A stretch of DNA of 61,970 bases, counting the filler, from Dugesia japonica (taxonomy: Eukaryota), in assembly GCA_001938525.1 (NCBI GenBank). It is 4 parts of 4 records of this genome, joined end to end, with 100 filler letters (N's around TTAATTAATTAA, not from the genome) between each part and the next. Parts side by side here need not be neighbours in the genome. Positions count along the whole stretch, not along the records: positions 52,887 to 61,970 come from MQRL01582287.1; 3 more parts are not named here. One strand, written 5' to 3'. The translations under genes and the position numbers were made by a program. The notes beneath the pieces were generated by a model. That model was not told the DNA's origin, made no database searches, and saw only the letters and a list, made by a program, of their open reading frames with translations. Below, one piece after another: positions 15,998 through 58,639 of the stretch (its first letter is position 1; every line of letters begins with the position of its first letter).

Positions 15998-17616
15998 TTA
16001 GCTGGGAATTTGTCTTTACAAAATGATAAAAAAAACAGAATTTTTCAATATATATAACTAATAAGTCTATATAAAAAAGACTTATAAGTAAATATTTTGA
16101 TATCTATAAGGTTAATGAGTATATTATTTGCATAGCTACCTTGTATTATTTAAATAGCAACCATGTATTATAAAGATTATGAGTGTATTATTACAAAGTA
16201 ACACTATAAAATAGGGTTTATGAGTGTATTATTTACATAGCAACCATAAATATAAGGTTTATGAGTAAATTATTTCCATAGTTACCTTGGATTATTTACA
16301 TAGCAACCGTGTAATATAAGACTTATAAGGGTATTATTTGCATCGGTACCTTGTATTATAGGGTTTTTGAGTCTACTATTTGCATAGTTACCTTGTATTA
16401 TTTACATAACAACCATAAAATATAAGGTTTATGAGTACATTATTTGTATAGCTACCTTGTAATTTTTACATAGCAACCATGCATTATAAGGATTATGAGT
16501 ATATTATTTCAAAGTAAGCCTGAATAATATGAATTATGAGTACATTATTTGCATAGTTAACTTGCTGTATTTACATAACCACCATGTATTATAAGGATTA
16601 TGAAGTTTTAATACATAGTAACCCTGTAATATAATGTTTACGAGTAAATTATTTGCTTAGATGCCATGTAATATTTTCATAACAACCGTTTAATATATGA
16701 TTTTTGTGTGTATTATTTACATAGTAACTGTGTATTGTAAGTTTTATGAGTCTATTATTTACTTAGTAACTCTGTATAAGGTGTATATTATTTACATTTT
16801 TACAGTGTAATATAAGGCTTATGGGAGTAATATTTACATAGAAAACTGTATAATATAAGACTTATGGGGGAATTATTTACATAGCAATCTTTTATAATAA
16901 GGATTATAAGATTTACGTGTGTATGAGTCTATTTATTACATATTTACCTTGTATTATTTGCATAGCAACCATGTATTATAAGGTTTATGAGTGTTTTTAT
17001 ACATAGTAACCCTGTAATATAATGTTTACGAGTATGTTACTTGCTTAGGTGCCATGTAATATTTACATAACAACCGTTTAATATATGACTTTTGTGTGTA
17101 TTATTTACATAGTAACTGTGTATTATAGGGTTTATGAGTATATTATTTACAAAGTTTTTGTGTATTAGGTGTATATTATTTACATATTTACCTTGTAATA
17201 TAAGGCTTATTGGGAGTAATATTTACATATAATCTGTATAATATAAGACTTATGATTAAATTATTTACATAACAACCGTGTAATATAAGACTTATAAAGG
17301 TATTTGTATATAGTAAAAATATAATATAGAGTTTATGAGTAAACTATTTATATATTAGCCGTGTAATATAAGGTTTACAAGTGTATCATTTGCTTAGTTA
17401 CCATGTAATAGAGTGTTACTTTGTAATAATACACTCATAATCTTTATAATACATGGTTGCTATTTAAATAATACAAGGTAGCTATGCAAATAATATACTC
17501 ATTAACCTTATAGATATCAAAATATTTACTTATAAGTCTTTTTTATATAGACTTATTAGTTATATATATTGGACAATTCTGTTTTTATCAATTTGCATAG
17601 ACAAATTCCCAGCTAA
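15998..17616. repeat. Foldback-like structure: ~205-bp inverted arms around a ~1.2-kb 39/22-bp minisatellite
   Basis: 15998-16205 is the reverse complement of 17412-17616. Internal units resemble TATAAGGTTTATGAGTATATTATTTACATAGCAACCATG. Confidence 0.85.
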
Positions 17617-24441: not shown

Positions 24442-24923
24442 TTAAAAATATTTCCCTCCCTTTTTTAATTCTTTCGATGGTTTTAAATTTTGATTTCTTA
24501 AATATTTATAAATTGCTTCACCCTGTTTTTCACTTTTCTTTTTTACTTCAAATTCTTTTTCTTTTTGATTTAATTGATCAATTTCAAGTTGATGTTTAAC
24601 TGCCTCTCGGGAACTTGAAACGGTGGATGCGATTCCACTGGCTACGCCGGCAAGGCTCGCTGCAGCAGCAAGAATTCCCGGCATGGCGGACAAGAAAAAA
24701 AGACCGCATTGTTCTTTTTGATGTTTTTCATTTCTTCTTTTGCTTTTTTACCTATCCAATAATTTTTACCATTAACTTTAATCGATCTACTAAGATTTGA
24801 ATTTATTAATTTTTTTAATTCTTCTTCTGTTATATTTGTATTATTTGGTTCTGGTCGTGCTTCGCTTCGCTCGCTAGTACTTCCTTTTAGTTGTGCCACT
24901 TTGCTCGCCATTTTAGTTAGCAA
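24442..24923 (-). pseudogene. Small amphipathic/basic virion core or membrane-active protein (frameshifted into two ORFs)
   Basis: MPGILAAAASLAGVASGIASTV amphipathic helix followed by a coiled, basic tail. Confidence 0.5.
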
Positions 24924-25659
24924 AAAGATCAGTTGTCATTTCATTTGTTAATTGATTTAAATAAAAATATGTATAGGGTTCTTTCCAATGAAAATTTACT
25001 TCATAATCATATTCATCTTTATCAGTAAATACATTAGAAAATAAATCACTATAAACACTGTCACTATCTTTTTTATTTAATCGAAAAAATATAAAACAAT
25101 TTGCATTATTTCTTATTGAATTTTTATCAAGGTGAAAATATGTTTGTGAAATGTAAATTACATTACAATTTGAATGTCTACCTCGAGTGAAATAACTTTT
25201 TCGAGTTTCTTGTTTTTTATTTACAACATCATCAAAAATTACAAGATTCTTTTTTAATTTTTCACAGCGGATAATCTCTAATGGATCACTACTTAGGGTT
25301 ATTCCAATTACCTGCGGTCTTTTTGTTACAAATTTCTTTTGAATGAAAAAATCTATAACTTCTATTGGGGTCGCACAGGAATCTGGAACAATCGCTTGCT
25401 TCTCAAATATAAATATTATTTCTTGTTTTGTTAATCCATTTAAAAATCCATGATTTAATAACTGTACTTCAAATTGATTAATTGTAGTTGAATAAATTAT
25501 GAGAATATCATAATCAAGAAAACCGAGCGTAAGTAACATTTGAGTCAAGAGAACATTTTTTCAACAACCAGAAGATCCAATTATTAATAATCTAAAGTTG
25601 CTGGGGAAAAGTTTAATTTTAAAAGTTACCTTGTCTCTTTTCCAAACTAAATTACTCAT
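24913..25659 (-). pseudogene. A32-like genome packaging ATPase with a nonsense codon in Walker A
   Basis: RLLIIGSSGC*K (GGA>TGA), LVIFDD, and RGRHSNCNVIYISQ..IRNN. Confidence 0.92.
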
Positions 25660-26469: not shown

Positions 26470-26888
26470 TGCAATTTTTACAAGACTTCCTTAAAATTTT
26501 TCTTCTGGTGTTGGATCTTCAATATTATTAATATCTTCTATTAAATGTACATCAGCTACGTGTTGATCTCTCATGTCTTCTGAATTATAAGCAATGTCAT
26601 GTTTCAACGCAGCTGCATCAATTCTATTAATTGGTTCTTCTCCTGGTAATGGATTATTATTTTCATCAAGTCTTAAATCTAATCTAGTTCCGGGACCAGT
26701 GTAATTGTGATGAAATAAATGTCTTTCATCGGGGTATTTGTCCCAATTAAATGGTTTTAAAATATTACTAACAAAACTTGATGATTGAAGATCGCCGCCA
26801 CCTTTACAAAGTTTCATATGCCTAGCTTTATTTTTTTTAACATGGTTCTATGACATTTTTCATATGTAAATTTAAACGATTTAGTCAT
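26470..26888 (-). pseudogene. Parvovirus-type phospholipase A2 domain (PLA2X) preceded by a C2HC-like zinc finger
   Basis: HNYTGPGT (Ca2+ loop), PINRIDAAALKHDIAY (His-Asp) and AD. Upstream (Y)EKC-x9-H-x3-C is read across one frameshift. Confidence 0.88.
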
Positions 26889-26892
26889 TTTT

Positions 26893-28143
26893 TTAACGAC
26901 TAAATTCAACACCTTTAACATTTTCAATCATTGCAATTTTATTATTAGCTAATTTCATTTCAATGTGTTTTTCTTCAAGAATACACCAGTAAAGACTTCA
27001 TGTAAAATCTGGATCCTTTGATCAACATTTATTTATATTTAATCTAACATCTTGAGCTGAAAGATCAAAACAGAAAATTGGATATTCGTCACCAAATTCT
27101 TGAAGAGATAATTGAGGTTCTATGAAAAAGTCTTGACAACATTTTAAATAATTTAAATAGAGAGAAATCATTTCATTATTTTCCACATTAAATTTACATT
27201 CATTAATTGGATAGTAATTATTGTTTAATGGAATTTGCATGCTTTTTAAATAATAATTTTCAATTTTATCTCCGACTGCTGGCGCTACTGCTTTTGTGGT
27301 TTTTGTTTTCTTTTTAATAAATAAATTATTATTATTTGCAAAAGAAATAGTTTCATTTTTCATAGCAATAAAAATATATCTTGGTTTGTATGCTAGCATA
27401 CTTAATTTTATAAAAGTATAATTTCCAGTATTTAATATTGCCTTTCCTGTAATTCCATTTAAAAATGCAACTTTAATTGGTTTATCAGTTGAGATTCTTT
27501 CTAAAAGCATTAATTCCATTTTAGGTGCTAATATAAATTCTGGAATGTGTCATTCAAGAGTCATTAATTTTAAATTTAGAGAGCCTTCTCCTTTAAATAA
27601 AAGTTTATTATTAATTTGTCTATAACAATTAAATTCAATCATTGTATTGTAAAATACGCGGGTAAAATTTTGAATGAATCCAAATAAATTTTTCAATGGA
27701 AAATAACCTTCAAATTTTTAAGAAGCATAAAATTTCTTTCTTCTATCTTCTTCAAGAATACATCCTGATAATTCTCCATATATTTCTCTATGTATATAAT
27801 TTGTTGTAACAAAATTTAACATTGTTGATATAGTGCCAGGGTCGCTAATAGTTTCTTCATCTGATGCTCCAAGTTTTAATCTCATAAATTTAAATAATGA
27901 TGGGAAAAAATTATTTTCTAGTATTGCAGTTTTTCCTTCGGTATATTCTAATTCTATTCTAAAGTATAACATTGCATTACAAATATCTAACGAATTTGTT
28001 GATTGTAAAGATTGAAAAGTTATCTCCCCATATTTTATTAAATTTGAAATTGTACTAGATGATGGTGAAATTTTTAAAATGTCATTTTTTAACATTTCAT
28101 GAGTAAAAATAATATTATTATCGAGATTTATTTTTCCTTCCAT
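26893..28143 (-). pseudogene. Major capsid protein (hexon-like double jelly roll), disrupted
   Basis: ORFs 27718-28143 and 27022-27519 with LENNFFPSLF, KPRYIFIAM, YYP and YPIFCFDLS; about 415 codons in total. Confidence 0.82.
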
Positions 28144-29254: not shown

Positions 29255-29354
29255 NNNNNNNNNNNNNNNNNNNNNNNNNNNNNNNNNNNNNNNNNNNNTT
29301 AATTAATTAANNNNNNNNNNNNNNNNNNNNNNNNNNNNNNNNNNNNNNNNNNNN
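29255..29354. other. Artificial contig linker
   Basis: 44 N + TTAATTAATTAA (stops in six frames) + 44 N. Confidence 0.97.
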
Positions 29355-33900: not shown

Positions 33901-34399
33901 ACAGAAAACGTTGCATATAAATTAATATTGTTTAAAATAAATTTGTTAAAATTTGTTTTAAAAGTAAATATTAAGTTCGTTCTAAAAATATTTTTTTTAT
34001 ACGTAAAAAGATCAAAATAAAAAAACAACGTGGTTGCAACTTAATTTTTGTTCATTTAAAATTTGATGATAATACTATTTCTTGTAATTTTTGAAATGTG
34101 AAACACTCATTACTAAAATATTCGAATGAATCTTTAAGCAAAGTAACAGTGATTTTAATATTTCCAAAAATCCCTAAAAATAACCAATTAAAATTTGTAA
34201 ATTTTACAAGAGTAATGGTTTTGTAATTTTAAATGATTGATAGTAAAGTAAATGTTTTGAGAGGAACGCAGTTTTTTTAAAATTAATAAATTTTGTAACA
34301 ATGGTAAATTGCCACCTATCAAAGACGAAGAATGTTAGAATGGTTTATTTAAAAGAATTAATCAATTATAGACTTCTTGATCCTGAATTATATAAGGTT

Positions 34400-35300
34400 C
34401 TTAAGGTGGTTGGTTAACAACCAACTAAATAAGGAAAAGGTTGATTTGTTTATTGGAAATAAACCACTATTTTATAAACGCTATGTGGATTATATATTTC
34501 AGGTTTTTAATAACCAAGTAAATATTGATTCATTCCTAAAGTATATGAATTTGCTGCATAGCAACCTTATATTCACTACAAAAATGGAATGTAAATCTAA
34601 ACTTTCTTTCATTGACATAATAATAGAAAGAAAATACAAACATTATGAAACAGAGATTTATCATAAACTAACGGATACAGGTTTGTATACATCTTCTGGT
34701 AGTTTTTATGAATCTCATTACAAGTATAACATGGTTAAAGACAGTTGTATAGATAGTGGACTCTTTACTCTTCATATTTGAAGTCTTGTGCTAATATTCA
34801 AAGTTTAACTTCTTTACTAAATAAAAATGGTTATTGTAAATAAATTATAGAAAAATTAAATAGTGAAACAATTTATAAGATCATTTATAAAAATAATAAA
34901 GAAATAAAAGATGTCAATTATAATGGTAATAATGATTTAAATTGTGAAAGTATTATCAAAGATCCAGATAAGATTTATAAGTTTAGTTCCGTATTAACTA
35001 TTTCGTAATCGGAAAGATGTAAACAATTTGATAGTGGGTTGTTAAATATAGAAATGACTCTGCAATTTTAAAATAATAAATATGTTTAGTAATAGGTCTA
35101 AAACACCGATTCAATTGTGTTCTGATCTTGTTTATAAATTTGAATGTAATAGGTGTAATGTCACATACATTGTAGAGACGCCCTGTCATCTCTGTGCAAG
35201 AATTCAGGAGCATCGTTGAGTTGGTAGTGAAAGTATTATTGCTGAACTTGATATTAATTGAAAATCAGTTATCAGTATATTGAAGAGATTGCATAAGTGA
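34400..35300 (+). mobile_element. Penelope-like retroelement remnant (RT C-terminus and GIY-YIG endonuclease)
   Basis: YKRYVDYIF..FL..MN.LH.NL.FT...KLSFID...IYHK.TDTG; LVYKFECNRCNVTYIVET..HL..RIQEH at 35116-35216. Confidence 0.88.
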
Positions 35301-36136: not shown

Positions 36137-38901
36137 TGTGAGTGTTTAAGAAAGAAGTTGAAATTTTTTGTGCTTTGATTAGAAACTGTTTTTTAAAAAC
36201 TTTTTAAAAAAAATTAAAAATCACAAATTAATTAAAAGTTAAAATAATTATTTTGAATGGATGTTTGATCTAAAATTTTCCAGCTGAAATTATTTTTAAA
36301 AATATTAAGAAAAAGGGTTTGAATGTCAATAAAATTTTGCAACTGAAATTATTTTTGAATGAATCTGAAATTTTAAATCTATTAGAAAATAGTTTTCAAT
36401 CAGATTAAACAAATAATGATGTAATAGTTTTTTTTGAAATAAATTTTTTTTAGTTGAATTTTGATATTGATAATCCTGGATCTCAAAACTCATCTTCGCG
36501 ATAAATACCGATGCGACCACAGCAAGATTGTAGCCAAAATTATTTTGCAGAGGCAATGATCTGGAAAAGTTTATTAAACGGTGTGAAATATACTTTGAGG
36601 CAAAGAACATCGTTTTTAAGAAAGATCAGGAACGTTGGGTAACAACTACGTGAAGATTTAATAAAAGCATATATGAAGATATTGAAGAAAGCGGATGAAT
36701 ATCGAGAAAGATTGCGATTAGCTTTTGAGAGCAAGAAAGACATAATAAAAGATTTACAGAATCTTGTAAGCTTTCGACTTGGTGATGAAGAACTTGAGGT
36801 GTTTTTAAAAATGTGGAAGATTTGGTCCATACATTTTTAGCAAATGGAGAGCTAACGATAGAAAAACTTTTATCAAAAATGCTAATAATTTGTGCAGATA
36901 GTAAAAAAGCAGAAGAAGAGATTATTATTCAAAAATTGGAGAAAGTAGAAGATATAAAAGAAATGCTATCCTTGGTTGAAAAAATAGAAAGAAGAGAACC
37001 TATTAGTAGTAAAGACTTACGCGGGTGTAACACGTGGAGAGCGTTTCGGAGAGAGAAGACAAAATATCTAGAGAGTTACAAAAAGAACGGAACCATAGTG
37101 TCTACTATGCCATAGTTATGAGCGTATAAAAAGAGTGTCCAAAATATTCTCATGTGGTATGATGTACTTGTCACAAAAAAGGCATTTAAGTAGAAATCGC
37201 CCAGACAAGAAACCACCAAAATGTTTTGAGTGTGGTAAGATTGGTCACGTCAGAAGGATGTGCACAGAAACTGTATGTGTTAGATGTAAAAACCGGGTCA
37301 TGGAGCGGAAGAATGTTATTCGAACATTAATAAACCTAGACTAGAAGAGAGAAGATACAATTCTAAAAGCGGACAACAAACAAAATATTGTAGTCGGACC
37401 AACCCAATTCATGCCACTCGAGAAGAAGATGACGAACAAAACGAAGAGATATTTTTTGAGAGCATAATAGAAAATGAAGATCTAAGAAGAAAATACCCAA
37501 AAGGTTAGAGCTACTTCAGTAGAGGAGTTGGTCAGAGCCATTCATTAAACGAGATACCGTTTAAATATCATCCAGAAGCCGAGAAATGGGATGAGACTAG
37601 TAAAGTGAGAGAAAACGTTTACAGATTCCTAAAAAGAGAAAGTTTCAATGATGCGAAAGTTAACAGAGCAGAAGTGATAGGAATAATTGAAGAGAGACAG
37701 AATGTAGAAATTTTGTATGATAAAATGTAAGGGAGACCTAGAATTTCAGTGATGATCAAGGGTGAACAGTTTGATTGTTTGTTAGATACAGGAGCAAGAA
37801 TAAATGTGATGAGCATGAAACGATTTAAAAAGAAACAATATTAGAGAAAAACGAGGAAAGATTGCATTGCGCGAATAACAGCTCATTGAAGACAATTGTA
37901 AAGATACGCTCGAATTTGTAGTTTCAGAGGTGTGCAAGGAAATAACATTTAAAATAGTAGAGAAATTAATACCAGATCTAATTGGTGGAGTGTAATCATC
38001 TTCAAAATAAGTGCATTGTAGACATCAATAATCATCGAGGAAAATTTGTTAGCAACATCAAGGCAAAATTTGGAATGCCGATACAGACAGGTGAACAATG
38101 GAGACATGCAATGGAGATTCTAGAAATTAACAAAGATCATAAATTGACTGCGATTATTCAGAATAATGAGGATGTATTTATGGCGGATAAATGAGACATT
38201 GGAAGCACACGCTTAACAAAGCATCGAATAATCACTAAAGAGGTCCAATCAACATAAAACCGTATCGCCAACCAATGAATCTAGAGGAGAAGATTGAAGA
38301 GACCATCAAGAAAGATGAAACAAGAAACAAGAACNAAGATCGTCATAAATAACCCTATAAGATCAAGAAGAAGGTTCATGACAGACGTTACATCCTGGAA
38401 GATACAAACGGAAAAAGTCTCGAAAAAAACATAGAGAAGATCAAAAAAATTCTTAAAAGGGGGGGTGTGAGTGGTTTAAAAGGGAGTTGAAATTTTTGTG
38501 CTTGATTGGAAACTGTTTTTTAAAATCTTTTTCTAAAAAAATTAAAAATCACAAATTAATTATAAGTTAAAATAATCATTTTGAATGGAAACTTGATCTC
38601 AAATTTTGCAGATGAAATTATTTTTAAAAATCTTAAAGCATTTGAATTAAAATTTTACAATTAAAATTATGTTTTAAAAATATTAAAAAAGTGTTTAAAT
38701 AAGAATAAAAAATTTGCAACTGAAATTATTTTTGAATGAATCTGAAATTTTAAATCTATTAGAAAATAGTTTTCAATCAGAGCATGAGGTTTTAATTTGT
38801 TTGATTAAACAAATAATTATATTATAGTTTTTATTTTGAAATAAATTTTATGTAGGTGAATTTTGATGTTGATAATCCGAGTTCTCAAAACTCATCTAAC
38901 A
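36137..38901 (+). mobile_element. Internally deleted Ty3/Gypsy LTR element (gag and protease, no RT/RNase H/integrase core)
   Basis: LTRs 36137-~36499 and 38466-38901 (TG..CA), PPT AAAAGGGGGGG, flanks GTAAT/ATAAT (5-bp TSD, one mismatch), CFECGKIGHVRRMC knuckle and LLDTGA protease. Confidence 0.9.
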
Positions 38902-52395: not shown

Positions 52396-52587
52396 TATAT
52401 TAATCGCAAAGCCATCATTCGGCCGTTAGCATTCAGACCTGTACAATCAACAAATACAGAATCTAGTCCAACAAAACCACCAGTAGCAGCTAAACCAAAA
52501 TTTCCAGAACAAAGAAGGTCTAGTCCACCTCCAGTTCCTCCACATGCAAGTCGTGTCCCATTAAAAACCAATTTAAATAGAGTTCAA
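52396..52587 (+). CDS. Host coding exon, Pro-rich, with an IIRPLAFRPV motif (possibly LZTS/N4BP3-like)
   Basis: TTTCATTTAG acceptor, 64 open codons, CAA|GTAAGT donor. The motif resembles the LZTS-family IRPTAFKPV. Confidence 0.75.
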
Positions 52588-52786: not shown

Positions 52787-52886
52787 NNNNNNNNNNNNNN
52801 NNNNNNNNNNNNNNNNNNNNNNNNNNNNNNTTAATTAATTAANNNNNNNNNNNNNNNNNNNNNNNNNNNNNNNNNNNNNNNNNNNN
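52787..52886. other. Artificial contig linker
   Basis: 44 N + TTAATTAATTAA + 44 N. Confidence 0.97.
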
Positions 52887-53238: not shown

Positions 53239-53789
53239 ATTATTATTATTAATATTATTATTGTTGGGGCGAAACACCTGAAAAACAAGATGAAAGTTGG
53301 AAAATAAATCAACAAACAAGAATGACGAAACCATTATGGAAAATGAGGCAATGAAAGCGATTATAGAAGGAAACGAAATAAAGCCAAAGATGAATATAAG
53401 AAACCGAGTAAAATAAAGCAACTTAGTTTGGGAAATTAAGAACAATTATTAATTTAATAATAAACAACAAGGAAAAGTAATAAGGAAAATAATTAATTAA
53501 ACAAAGAAAATTAATTTATTTTAAAAAAAAATGAAACGAAATTAGCAGAAAACCTATTTTATCCGGATAACTTTGTTCCAGGAAGTTGGGAAAAACCCGG
53601 ACAAGAAAAACTGAAGAAAGAACATCGAGGTGCAACTGAAATGACAAAAAAGAAAAACATACCACCTTCCAGAAGGGTACGGCAAAGTTTCCAAGATCCA
53701 GCCAATGAGAATCCTAAAATTAAAAATAGAACAAAATTTTTGTTTATTTTTGGATAAACGTAGTAGTTATGATAAAAATGACTAGTGTT

Positions 53790-54300
53790 ATATTAATAAA
53801 ACTTAGTTGATACAGTAAAAATAATTCTTCATTCTAATTAAAATTCCTTCATGTCAATAATGTACATAACCATTACTTTATGAGTAAACTTAGTATTTAT
53901 AATAACCATAATTAATGTTGAATTAATCAAATTTAGTTTAGGAAGTATAAAATAACTCCTTATTCTAATTAAAATTATTTAATGTCAATAATGTAAATAA
54001 CCAACACTTTATGAGTAAGCTTAATAATTATAATAACTATAATTAATGTTGAATTAATCAGATTTAGTTTATAAAGTATAAAATAATTCGTTATTCCAAT
54101 TAAAATGACTTAATGTCAATAATTCAAATAACCATCATTATGAGTACATTTAAGATTTCTGATAATCAAAATTTATGTGGATTCAATCAAATTTATTCTA
54201 TAAGGTATAAAATAATTCCTGGTTATAGTTAAAATCACCTAATGTTCATAATGAAACCATCCTTCAAGTTAGGAATAAACATAACAATTTTGATGATCAT
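53790..54300. repeat. ~131-bp tandem repeat, about 4 diverged copies
   Basis: AAATAA(T/C)TC...ATGTCAATAAT...TATGAGTA recurs at about 53819, 53950, 54081 and 54210. Confidence 0.85.
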
Positions 54301-55722
54301 GAATAATAAATTTTAGTTCCCAACAAGTAAAGTGCGCTAGTGAAATTCTCTACAATTAATAATTAGACTGTGTATCCTTTTGTAATGGATTGAATTGCTG
54401 GAAATCATTAACTATCAAGTGTGTTGTTATTACAATATAACAGAATATTTATCATTACAGTAAATTCATGATCTCGCATTTAGCAAATACACCACATCTG
54501 AGCTATAGGATTCGATTTAGCTGATTTTAAAACAACCAATATTTTTTTTATCACATAACAAAATAATAAAAAATTAGGAAAGCAAGACAATCATTTATTA
54601 GAATTTTAATATAAATCTATCCACTAACAAGGATTTGTCATGTAAATATCCACAAGAATTTGATCATCTGATAATTTCCAAAAACAAAAAGTATTGACAT
54701 ACACTGGCTTTTATTGATAGGAAACTTTCGTAGATGCATCATCGCCAATACTGAAAACCAAACGGATGTTTTGTCATAAAACTAGTTTTGCTGTTCAATG
54801 ATTGAAGCACCATATTGTTTGCCAGTAATCCTACAATAAATGAGGTGACTCATAGTCGACACATGGTTGGTACAGTTTTCTAAGCCTGCACACGAACACA
54901 AGTGGGTATACATGCTAACACCTTTAAAACCAATGCGAGTAAGCCCTATCACTAGGCAACCACAGACGCGACAATTTAAACATAAAAATAGAGCTGAAAT
55001 ATTGTTAAATTTTAATTTTTGACATTACGATTATTTTAACAGTTTCAAAATATTACTAGATTTAGAGTAATTACTCTCATCACTAATATTAACAATTTTC
55101 TAGAAGATGAACACCAACTCATTGGAACCCCTTTTTCTAGTATTATTATCATATGATCGATATTATCATCTGTAGAATGATTACTATGACTTTTATTAGT
55201 TATAATATTACTAACACAAATATGATTGTCAGTATTGATATAGAGATAATTCTTTCATTATTATTAATATTACCATTATTATCATTAAGTGTTCTCTCAA
55301 ATCAAGATTATCATTATTAATCCGGATAACATCGTTATTAGATACTATCAAAGAACTATTCTTGGGGAAAGATAACCAACCCCTAGTTAGTATGGCTATT
55401 GATTTTTAGCATTTCATACGACATGACTATCGTTCCGGTACTATTAACTATCCTTCAAATCGATGAAGCCTGATACTGTTGCGGTCATAAGGGTTATCAT
55501 CATTACTAGTAACCAAGAAGGATGTAGTTGACATTATAACCTTTAAAGTGAATAGGACTAATCCACAGGATCATATCAGATGAATTTCAACTAAAATCAT
55601 TTCAATAGATTAATATCATGAGACGAGTCGTCCACGTAATACCACCAGAATAGTAGCCAATATTTGTTGAAGAAAGATTCTAGGATATGAATTAAACTAT
55701 ATCTTTCCGTTATTTTTTTTAG

Positions 55723-55907
55723 TGATGGCAATCGTGTTGCGGGACGCTCTCCGCCAGATAAGAAAGCAACGACGCTCTACTCGCCTAAAACAATTAATTG
55801 CCCACTATTTGGCGAGAGGCCAGGGGGAACACCCCGACGAAACAGATCTTCAGTGTTTTGTTGAGATGTTTCCCCTTGAACATAGAGTGGATATCGACGA
55901 GGAGTAA
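55723..55907 (+). CDS. Cassette 1: terminal exon ORF (~60 aa)
   Basis: TATTTTTTTTAG|TG ATG; GC-richer than the flanks. Confidence 0.55.
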
Positions 55908-56119
55908 CCGCGCTGGCTAAACCCATAGTGGATTCACTCATCTAAAGTGTATTTAATCTAATTGTCGTATCATACATCGTCTATGAATTAAATCCTGTGT
56001 TTTATTTTACTTACAATTTATTTCTCTTAAATATAATCCATTGATTTACCCAAATGTATTTCACTCTGTTTAAATAAAAAAATTCATTAGCTGTTTATTA
56101 TAGAAAAAACGAAACACTT

Positions 56120-56548
56120 ATGGAATATAAATGGGAAGTATGCCTAGATGTCTATTCAGGCCGGACGACATTTAAGAGGTATAAGAACCCATACAATCGA
56201 GATACCGGTGATTTGGTTGATCACACCAATTTACCTCCCAAGCAAGTAGATTACGAAAGGCAGTGGGACACGACCGAACGAGCTGCTTACTATAGTTGGT
56301 GAGGCCCACGTAGAGACCGGTTCGCCACCCCACCAGCAACCCTGTCCTTCGAACGTTCGGCAGAAATTCCGCAAATAGAACGTGTCTGTCACGATGGCCC
56401 TTCGTCAGTCGGGCTTACTACGAATTTCTTGCCTCCCACGGCACAACTCACGTCGTTCATACAAAATAACCTGTGGGGAGTCCAAAATGCGCTAATTAAC
56501 ATCAACGATGAAAATGTGGGAGAAGAGCACCTCGATGTGCTAGCATAA
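56120..56548 (+). pseudogene. Cassette 2: 142-codon ORF with one internal TGA
   Basis: Acceptor TTTATTATAG at 56103; the frame stays open 81 codons past TGA 56300 to TAA 56548; AATAAA at 56564. Confidence 0.55.
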
Positions 56549-56697
56549 ACCTAATACTATTAAAATAAAATTTAAATTGATATTTATTTTCCTTAGTTAT
56601 TTGGACTTAAATTGTTATTGTCTCATTAATTGATCCTATTTTCGACTAAATTCAGTCATCGTTAAAAATCTTAAATTTTACGCTAACTTTGTTTTAG

Positions 56698-57065
56698 TGC
56701 ATTCTTCTTTGAACCGATCACAGGCCCCAACCAAGAAATTACGCGAGGATAGCGAGGATAAGGAGATTACCTGGGACCTATATAAATTAGCTAAGAGGCG
56801 ATGGGAAGCAGAGATCGCAACAGCTAACGCTAAAGTAAAGCGGTATAAAACGAAATGTACGAATGTTCGCGAAGAAATGAAGGTGGTGCAGGACCAAGAG
56901 AGGGTCTGGAAGGCTCAGGTAGAATCCTTCGCTGAAATTATCTGGTCCAGCCATGACCGTGAGAATAAACTGGTCAAGGACATTCTCCTACTGAAAACGA
57001 AATCTTATCTGGAGCCACTTATGATTGATAAGGGCACCCAGACGAAACTTAATTCCCACGTTTAA
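56698..57065 (+). CDS. Cassette 3: terminal exon ORF, coiled-coil-like (~122 aa)
   Basis: Branch-like GCTAAC and TTTGTTTTAG|TG; AATAAA at 57082. Confidence 0.6.
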
Positions 57066-57189
57066 CCTTTATCTCTTAAAAAATAAAATTTTGTACATCT
57101 TACTTTTGATCTCTGTTGTTGACAGCTTTGATAATAAATTCGATAATAATAACATACATTGTTATCTGTTAATGCTTATTTTATTTTAG

Positions 57190-57572
57190 TGCCACGAATT
57201 AGTTTCCCCAACAACCTTAGGAGATGTCACCACATTCTGCGTCGCCTCCTTCTTGAAAGACATCTGAAACGCAAAGCCGACAAAGCCTTATTAAAGCACC
57301 TTGCTCAACGAGACCAGCTTATTAAAAAACTGGATCTAATCATAAAGAAGCAAAATGACCTTGCCATTCAGACAAAGGCATTAGAAACAGAAAATAAACA
57401 ATTATTGCAGCGGAAGATTGAATTTTTAAAGCAATACATTGCTGATTTATCCCGACAAATAGGTAATCCAAATATATTGCAATGAGATGATTATGAGGAC
57501 ATTGGAGCTTTTAATTTTGCGTTAACCGACCCAAGCCAATGGCTAGATCCAGGGGCGCTGGACTTAATTTAA
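57190..57572 (+). pseudogene. Cassette 4: terminal exon ORF, coiled-coil-like, internal TGA at 57483
   Basis: TTTTATTTTAG|TG; no in-frame ATG; the frame continues 28 codons past the TGA; AATAAA at 57585. Confidence 0.55.
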
Positions 57573-58639
57573 TTATTTTTATAAAATAAACTGTCAGTAT
57601 TCAAAATTTTATTTTCATTCTTTCAATAGTAACAATAATGGAAAAATCCTTGAACCCGAATATAAAGGTTTATCGGTGCGTACCTTCCATTAAGAGCAAG
57701 GCCAACCGCCATAAACTGAAAACCTACCACAGGAATGGTAGGGTAAATTCTTGAAAGGGTTCCCCTGAGGGCTGTTTTTCCCCAGCCCCCTTTTTGTGTC
57801 ACTCAACTCAGGTGGGACCCCAACATTATTATTATTATTAATGTTATTTAAAATATTTTTTGTAGGTGTCAATTTTTACATCTTTAGCATCAATTTCCCC
57901 ACCTAATTGTAAAAAATGATTTTTTTTATCGGCGTGTAAATTTTCACACATTATTATTATTAAAATGTTATTTTATGGGTGTGAATTTTCACACTTTTGG
58001 CATAAACTTTCACACCTCAATCCTGTGTATTGATGCTGGAATATTAAAAGAAATATATCATTGTTGTTATTTAAGATGTACTTTGTAAGGTGTGAACTTT
58101 CATACATTATTATAAACTTTGAATTTTCACACTTTTGGCATCAACTTTTACCCCTAACGGTAATTTTTTCCATTAAAAATAATTAGCCTCAAATATTTTT
58201 TTAACGAAATGAAATTATTATTATTTTTAATTCTATCATTAATTACTAATAGCAACGAAAAAAATTTATTTACATGATGACAGGTAATGTACACAAGGTT
58301 TTAAACATTTTTTGTAAGCACAATAATCTCCATGACTATAATATGGACAGGGAATATTATCTGGTATACATAATTGTAATTTTTCATTTAAGTTATAATT
58401 GAAAATTTGAAGACTTGGGAAAAATTTCTTTGTGGAAAATCTCAAATTTTTATTTTTGGTGCTTGATTTTCTCTGCGTAAACAACATGTATGGTTTCGAT
58501 TTTAGTATTATTTTACTCAGGAGGAAAAAGTGACTATGTAAAGGTAAAATATCGTCTCGCAAAAATGCTTCATTTAGAAGATATTCAGCTGCTTTCTCGG
58601 ATTTGGTAAATTTTTTCAAAAATTGAAAAAGTATCTCAG

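Follow-up and report, generated by a model that had tools for sequence, protein, structure and literature searches.

The 61,970-nucleotide stretch of Dugesia japonica DNA analysed here (the window; four joined parts of assembly GCA_001938525.1) contains, at positions 53262..57825, a 4,564-bp element whose plus strand carries a real, well-structured array of probably three genes, A, B and C, each of which starts with TG directly behind a splice-acceptor AG, in phase 1, and ends 12-16 nt before an AATAAA hexamer. A leader ending in A completes an ATG in all three genes, and our view, held with slightly more confidence than doubt, is that a shared leader with this ending is alternatively cis-spliced to the three, building their start codons as A|TG.

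According to the proposed scheme, a gypsy-type retrotransposon bounded by long terminal repeats (LTRs) would carry an accessory transcription unit within its 4.6-kb LTR. A promoter near 54.7-54.99 kb, or else the main leader of the element, would give rise to a short non-coding leader ending in A, which would be cis-spliced alternatively to the acceptors 55723, 56698 or 57190, each junction creating an in-frame A|TG start for a different, unrelated gene, and every gene would terminate at a poly(A) site of its own. Neither B nor C would be made from unspliced or misspliced RNA, such that the choice of splice and poly(A) sites would pick the protein.

Organization of the gene array

An earlier, sequence-only reading of this locus had described four tandem cassettes, each an acceptor followed by an open reading frame (ORF), three of them with a poly(A) signal. 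All four acceptors are present, with AG at 55721-22, 56102-03, 56696-97 and 57188-89 and with 9, 7, 7 and 8 pyrimidines, respectively, in the 10 nt before YAG; the exons behind them begin TGATG, AAAAA, TGCAT and TGCCA. In agreement with that reading, TG in phase 1 opens three of the four exons, whose frames run for 60, 121 and 97 codons, cassette 4 has no Met and the first Met of cassette 3 is codon 60. The tandem ORFs hold up in part: GC content steps up into the open frames, but cassettes 2 and 4 are each broken by an in-frame TGA (56300-02 and 57483-85). The same is true of the poly(A) signals, whereby AATAAA is found at 56564..56569 (T-rich downstream), 57082..57087 and 57585..57590, that is, 15, 16 and 12 nt past the last stops of cassettes 2, 3 and 4 (56548, 57065 and 57572; in cassettes 2 and 4, the distances of 12-15 nt refer to the stop beyond the in-frame TGA), whereas in cassette 1 the nearest hexamer lies 165 nt past the stop. 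As had been cautioned, such hexamers are common, AATAAA beginning 10-20 nt downstream at 3.8% of window positions.

The four cassettes do not appear to be equivalent units. The first two probably belong to a single gene, A, as its exons, because the stop of cassette 1 (55905-07) overlaps a GT donor in phase 2 (at 55904) and the acceptor at 56102-03 is in phase 2 as well; a donor and an acceptor would match in this way by chance in about 8% of cases (one third of the 24% of codons that have G as their last base). Gene A would then consist of exon 1 (55723..55903, beginning AG|TG ATG), a probable 200-nt GT-AG intron (55904..56103, GC 0.28) and exon 2 (56104..56548, 147 codons, with an ATG of its own at codon 6). 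With this merger, both exceptions to the pattern vanish, namely, the exon without a TG start and the cassette without AATAAA, leaving three genes of the same build. Gene B (56698..57065, 121 codons) is intact, and gene C spans 57190..57572; the distances from AATAAA to the next acceptor are 132 nt (A to B) and 106 nt (B to C).

With thresholds that were set after the data had been seen (GC step of at least 0.15 and frame of at least 55 codons), 4 of the 12 acceptor-like sites on the plus strand of the element pass, exactly the four cassettes, compared to 1 of 17 on its minus strand and 1 of 308 outside the element; TG combined with a phase-1 frame of at least 55 codons is found at 3 of 12 and 1 of 308 sites, respectively. 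The chance of three exons sharing any dinucleotide and phase is about 1e-3, and that of sharing TG in phase 1 is about 1e-6 to 6e-6. A codon-position bias is apparent as well, the pooled difference between GC content at first and second codon positions (0.192) being reached in 0/2000 shuffles. Frame length alone is significant for B (19/2000 shuffles) and C (29/2000) and not for cassette 1 (817/2000) or for either half of cassette 2 (317/2000 and 429/2000). GC content at third codon positions (GC3) is 0.37-0.52 in the array genes, compared to 0.08 in a host-like exon, 0.12-0.21 in Polinton genes and 0.28-0.36, the nearest values, in gypsy pol remnants of the same window. None of the 8 DNA and 10 protein pairs of units reached the 5% level in shuffles (best, 29/500); thus, the units lack DNA and protein similarity, and their shared TG/phase-1 start was not inherited through duplication.

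Source of the start codon

Gene C has no Met and gene B has none before codon 60, and yet the part of B ahead of this Met is open, which implies that the start is supplied from upstream. Specifically, the first 59 codons of B are open in frame in 39/3000 shuffles, and its predicted helix runs through the Met at codon 60; in the fixed frame of C, the first 97 codons are open in 3/3000 shuffles and the tail beyond the TGA in 594/3000. B and C thus have long frames that lack an early ATG and begin, behind an acceptor, with the TG of this codon, whereas A has a second ATG right behind the junction. A CTAAC branch-like site lies 13 nt ahead of the acceptor of gene B.

Only two GTAAG sites, at 54939 and 54015, lie upstream of the genes on the plus strand, and both follow A; across the window, 20 of 65 GTAAG sites are preceded by A. 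Under looser scoring, there are 8 A|GT donor candidates upstream, six of them weaker than the two GTAAG sites. The best candidate for the shared donor is CGA|GTAAGC (54936..54944, predicted intron start 54939). A leader ending at 54938 would have A as its last base and would place G at −3 of the resulting ATG, and it would lie in a GC-richer island (54700..54990; GC 0.35-0.42 vs 0.18-0.25 in the surroundings) that we regard as a candidate promoter. The island contains a palindromic TGACTCA at 54846 (the motif TGA[CG]TCA occurs 6 times in the window and once in the element) and, at its edge, a minus-strand AATAAA with a T-rich tail at 54715; possibly, it is a bidirectional promoter. If the genes are sense to the element, the genomic RNA must pass three poly(A) sites; if they are antisense, the island would have to act in both directions. 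In the full element, the donor could also sit beyond the LTR.

Several observations weigh against splicing of a shared non-coding leader from these donors. Out-of-frame ATGs, both in weak context, lie 6 and 27 nt upstream of donor 54939, past which the GC content hardly falls (0.43 to 0.40), and a strong acceptor-like site at 55139 (10/10 pyrimidines) is located between this donor and the first gene. Donor 54015 would bring along an in-frame ATG, so that the junction becomes codon 2. Poly(A) hexamers occur on both strands of the element (16 on plus, 12 on minus), the acceptor contrast carries its post hoc thresholds, and the element is present in a single copy in the window. Among the homologue-search matches of A exon 1, A exon 2 and B, there was no transcript-derived or spliced-product protein, and the one homologue of A exon 2 (P0001, below) begins at a Met that is also present in this exon, as would be expected if cassette 2 had a start of its own.

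The same alternative cis-splicing could operate with a short coding leader that itself supplies the ATG and joins the exons in phase 1, for example from donor 54015 or from a donor in the internal region of the full element. We consider this unlikely, although the site at 54015 has features in its favour: it is a GTAAG with an in-frame ATG one codon upstream (at −4), such that the last four bases of the leader are ATG plus A, and TATAAAAT is found at 53946, about 70 nt upstream. A leader of ATG plus one base is used by HTLV-1 tax. However, a coding leader fixes the phase and not the dinucleotide, and yet all three exons begin with TG. Furthermore, donor 54015 sits in the second copy of a 131-bp tandem unit (53792..54253, plus strand, 3.6 copies, each with TATAAAAT and the word TTATGAGTA), where GC is 0.15-0.20, and TTATGAGTA recurs 7 times in repeats of an unrelated element of the window, which fits a protein-binding site. 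All 10 occurrences of this word in the window are on the plus strand, 7 in the Polinton-side repeats (16259-17333) and 3 in the 131-bp repeats (53878, 54009 and 54138); possibly, unrelated elements share it as a binding site for a host factor (AP-1-like).

An operon-like polycistronic RNA, with a spliced leader trans-spliced at each acceptor and poly(A) addition after each gene, would agree with the layout of the array. Same-strand flatworm genes no more than 300 bp apart are treated as operonic (PMC12582326), a spacing found here, and the 132- and 106-nt distances match the peak at about 100 bp between trans-spliced genes of Macrostomum and C. elegans (PMC8629364); moreover, cis- and trans-splicing share acceptors in flatworms (PMC12582326). 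What makes this explanation quite improbable is translation: the reported flatworm spliced leaders end in ATG, with two exceptions (PMC12582326), and such a leader, as the sequence-only reading had foreseen, would be out of frame, opening just 0, 4 and 25 codons. Gene C has no Met of its own to fall back on, and the arrangement would be workable for A only.

A chance pattern, or captured host exons without a shared expression logic, would account for the short frames of A, which are not significant alone, for the two broken frames, for the abundance of AATAAA and for the lack of homologues of B and A exon 1; nevertheless, we give it a slightly lower probability still, given the coding bias, the P0001 homologue, the acceptor contrast of 4/12 vs 1/308 and a codon composition unlike that of the host-like exon. 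Very improbable is the use of unspliced RNA with a near-cognate GTG start or a separate promoter for each gene: the codon spanning each boundary (G of AG plus TG) does read GTG in frame in all three genes, but the T-rich tracts, YAG and the CTAAC branch-like site are splice signals, gene A has an ATG immediately behind TG, and spacers of 106-132 nt offer little room for promoters.

Predicted gene products

Profile and structure searches, which had been suggested along with the array, produced one homologue (for A exon 2) and a predicted helix in B, and no Pfam family: among the 7 frames searched, nothing exceeded the curated cut-off, Rfam gave 0 matches and sequence searches of PDB gave chance-level matches only.

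Exon 1 of gene A encodes an Arg-rich, helix-like N-terminus and an acidic end, its unspliced product having 60 aa; no homologue was found among longer proteins (20 candidates). Exon 2 matches P0001, an ENA protein from a 512-bp contig, with E 3.8e-21 and 63% identity over 60 aa. A profile of this exon recovered only P0001 among 45 candidates, and accordingly no fused exon 1-exon 2 protein. In the search that found P0001, the other two of 3 matches, P0002 and P0003, were discarded as repeat-driven artefacts (matches summed from five stretches; one is a repetitive protein, the other a bacterial adhesin of the RTX-repeat kind). Comparison of P0001 with the atlas gave no usable match, its fold is of low confidence (pLDDT 51) and a viral fold search yielded 0 matches at E 0.001. 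A WW-like reading of exon 2 is without Pfam support. P0001 is open across the position of the gene A TGA, which disfavours programmed read-through of this codon. A donor-like GTGAG lies over this TGA as well, but splicing from it would, by its phase, leave just 17 codons open in B or 3 in C, and this candidate was likewise set aside. The gene A product is most likely an Arg-rich RNA- or DNA-binding factor.

The gene B protein has a basic N-terminus, a long helix or coiled coil and a C-terminal [KR]xTQT motif. In a single-sequence AlphaFold model, the helix covers residues 12-104 (mean pLDDT 82.6), and the motif lies past its end, at residues 111-115 (183/20000 shuffles). The sole [KR]xTQT among the 123,936 codons of all six frames in the window is that of gene B. 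A motif outside the folded part and near a coiled coil is what is expected of a client of LC8 (DYNLL), to which binding is predicted. Caution is due, given that TQT, the anchor for LC8 binding, does not suffice by itself, and many TQT peptides fail to bind (PMC6607443). Judging from the sequence features, the product is most likely a coiled coil dimerised via the host hub LC8. Homology searches with gene B gave 1 candidate and none at E 0.001, and the atlas comparison returned weak unnamed clusters only (recognition 1529).

Gene C encodes a basic region (net +13 in 97 aa) and a heptad zipper, followed beyond the TGA by a 28-codon acidic tail (net −7). The basic signature of bZIP proteins is Asn-x7-Arg. 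Although the basic region and heptads are present in C, this signature is absent by inspection of the sequence and Pfam gave no bZIP match (weak coiled-coil matches only), which counts against a bZIP assignment. By its build, which resembles that of a viral transactivator, the product is most likely a basic-zipper-like transactivator with an acidic tail. More generally, because of the analogy to CERV and to the antisense ORFs of Retand, Grande and HTLV-1, we infer that the three products are most likely small, soluble, basic or helical nuclear regulators of the element, acting in transcription or RNA export.

The carrier element

The location of the array inside a mobile element, proposed from the start, is borne out by TG...CA ends, inverted termini and flanking ATT tracts. 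The element begins TGTTGGGG and finishes CCCCAACA; its terminal inverted repeat is perfect over 8 bp and imperfect over about 20 bp, and the termini fit the TGTNR pattern with a short inverted repeat that is expected of gypsy LTRs. Copies of TTAT within (ATT)n tracts flank it at 53258..53261 and 57826..57829. The left and right flanks are identical over 4 bp and 7 bp and not over 5, 6 or 8 bp, which is weak evidence of the 4-6 bp target-site duplication expected of an LTR retrotransposon, since the target is an ATT microsatellite. No sequence resembling a primer-binding site (PBS) or polypurine tract (PPT) lies beside either end, both flanks being ATT tracts; frame reading and Pfam revealed no transposase or gag/pol frame in the element, and no second copy was found in the window. 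With no PBS, PPT or internal domain attached, the element is in the state expected of a solo LTR. Burro LTRs are reported by Grohme et al. (2018) to be about 5 kb long with AAT/ATT microsatellite ends. The element is likely to be a long solo LTR left by a Burro-like retrotransposon of the gypsy type. An in-frame TGA interrupts both A and C, and P0001 is open across that of A; therefore, the locus is probably a decaying solo copy.

Instead of an LTR, the carrier could be a non-autonomous DNA transposon (Ginger-like) or some other element with the same cassette. TGTNR ends are common to gypsy LTRs and Ginger transposons, the latter also making 4-bp duplications (PMC2836005), and gag-pol is not attached at the locus. 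However, Ginger terminal inverted repeats span about 40-270 bp (Ginger1) or 50-180 bp (Ginger2) and the targets are CCGG/CCGT or RTATAY (PMC2836005), whereas here the repeat is about 20 bp and imperfect, the target is an ATT tract and no frame for an integrase-like transposase is present. The probability of such a carrier is accordingly low, and it would alter the identity of the carrier, not the splicing model.

Some further features of the upstream part of the element are noted. An 80-codon plus-strand frame lies at 53515-53757. Behind the acceptor-like site at 55139 lies a frame of 59 codons that is AT-rich and of low complexity. On the minus strand, an acceptor-like site at 53715 coincides with a GC step, and each of the three phases is open for 50-65 codons, which may reflect strand-biased composition.

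Comparison with known systems

In the adenovirus major late unit, a common leader is joined to alternative acceptors in a transcript with several poly(A) sites, and MMTV sag, HIV nef and the foamy virus bel ORFs lie in U3, that is, inside the LTR. Unlike the genes described here, those carry their own ATG and belong to different virus classes.

Start codons made at a splice junction are known. The env start of Drosophila gypsy (errantivirus) is assembled by splicing from AT of the leader and G of the env exon (PMC2585583). This case belongs to the same retroelement superfamily, but, as far as that source describes, it concerns one internal gene, joined AT|G and served by the LTR poly(A) site, whereas here there would be three genes, joined A|TG, in an LTR-like unit and each followed by a separate AATAAA; none of the three showed features of env or of membrane proteins. 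Similarly, in EBV, the leader exon of EBNA-LP ends in AT and needs the right acceptor to generate ATG (10.1101/170746), so that the start codon depends on a leader joined to a particular acceptor. In this herpesvirus, however, the device is described as switching one gene on or off, not as selecting one of three genes that each have a poly(A) site.

In the very AT-rich genomes of planarians, the giant gypsy elements Burro and GYPSM1 carry accessory ORFs as well as regulatory domains, the accessory functions being left open (PMC6431247). Elements of this kind are de-repressed when piwi is knocked down (PMC8532177). The similarity lies in large gypsy elements with accessory ORFs; by the published description, their accessory domains are in or upstream of the polyprotein and are not spliced LTR genes (PMC6431247). 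Small nuclear proteins expressed from spliced or separately promoted RNAs include CERV of Cer1 (PMC10309623), the antisense ORFs of Retand and Grande, and HTLV-1 HBZ (PMC11963269), and in MDG1 an alternative poly(A) site follows sORF1 (PMC11952523). In contrast to the array, these are internal, the available accounts describe no shared split start codon, and no sequence similarity was found.

Thus, splice-built start codons and accessory ORFs with alternative poly(A) are already known, and the part that may be new is the three-gene arrangement in an LTR. A row of three unrelated genes inside an LTR, with one split start codon and a poly(A) site each, was not found in the literature, although Repbase and the Burro description, which lay outside the reach of the search, may cover such transcripts.

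Implications

The LTRs of invertebrate retrotransposons are usually regarded as non-coding control DNA. A broader interpretation, conceivable but doubtful, is that a gypsy lineage has evolved a regulatory operon resembling those of complex retroviruses wholly inside its LTR, whereby a single A would be donated to three genes with coupled splicing and polyadenylation, possibly in antisense, and each solo LTR would be a self-contained three-gene module. Gene C would then act on the TGACTCA/TGAGTA sites, and B would engage LC8, a hub in Drosophila transposon silencing (PMC7861614). If this LTR does hold three spliced regulatory genes, transposon proteins could still be produced from solo LTRs across the genome, and such genes would escape standard ORF finders, the start codon being absent from the DNA. 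The array would also be a compact example of translation gated by splicing, in which several genes depend on one donor, and would provide candidates for Tax/Rev-like regulators in giant gypsy elements.

Other features of the window

The window is about 25% GC, animal-like and rich in AAT/ATT microsatellites, with N gaps and several decayed mobile elements scattered along it. TTAATTAATTAA linkers within the N runs at 29298, 42753 and 52830 mark artificial contig joins. The linker at 52830 separates the 4,564-bp element from the host-like exon, a proline-rich exon at 52430-52587 (plus strand; GC3 given above), and the adjacency of the two is therefore uncertain; if they are contiguous, a host intron contains the element and runs in the direction of the element's acceptors and poly(A) sites. 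The donor of this exon is likewise preceded by A.

A second A-rich unit at 442-1660, with the ends TGTTGGG and CCCAACA, lies beside an AAT tract, has an N gap inside and is perhaps another LTR family. Its kinship with the main element is not claimed, the similarity of the ends not being significant (14/300 shuffles under lenient and 443/1000 under strict scoring).

A second gag-protease-like remnant at about 36500-38470 (plus strand) and a Penelope-type reverse transcriptase-like remnant at 34362-35260 (plus strand; no Pfam match at E 0.001) were recognised by eye. A decayed gypsy pol at 6152-8577 (minus strand) matches reverse transcriptase and integrase. Between about 16,000 and 28,800 lies a decayed Polinton/adintovirus-like element with long subterminal repeats, which on the minus strand contains an A32-type ATPase (24916-25560), a phospholipase-A2-like domain (26494-26847) and a weak, below-cut-off double-jelly-roll match (27025-27549).

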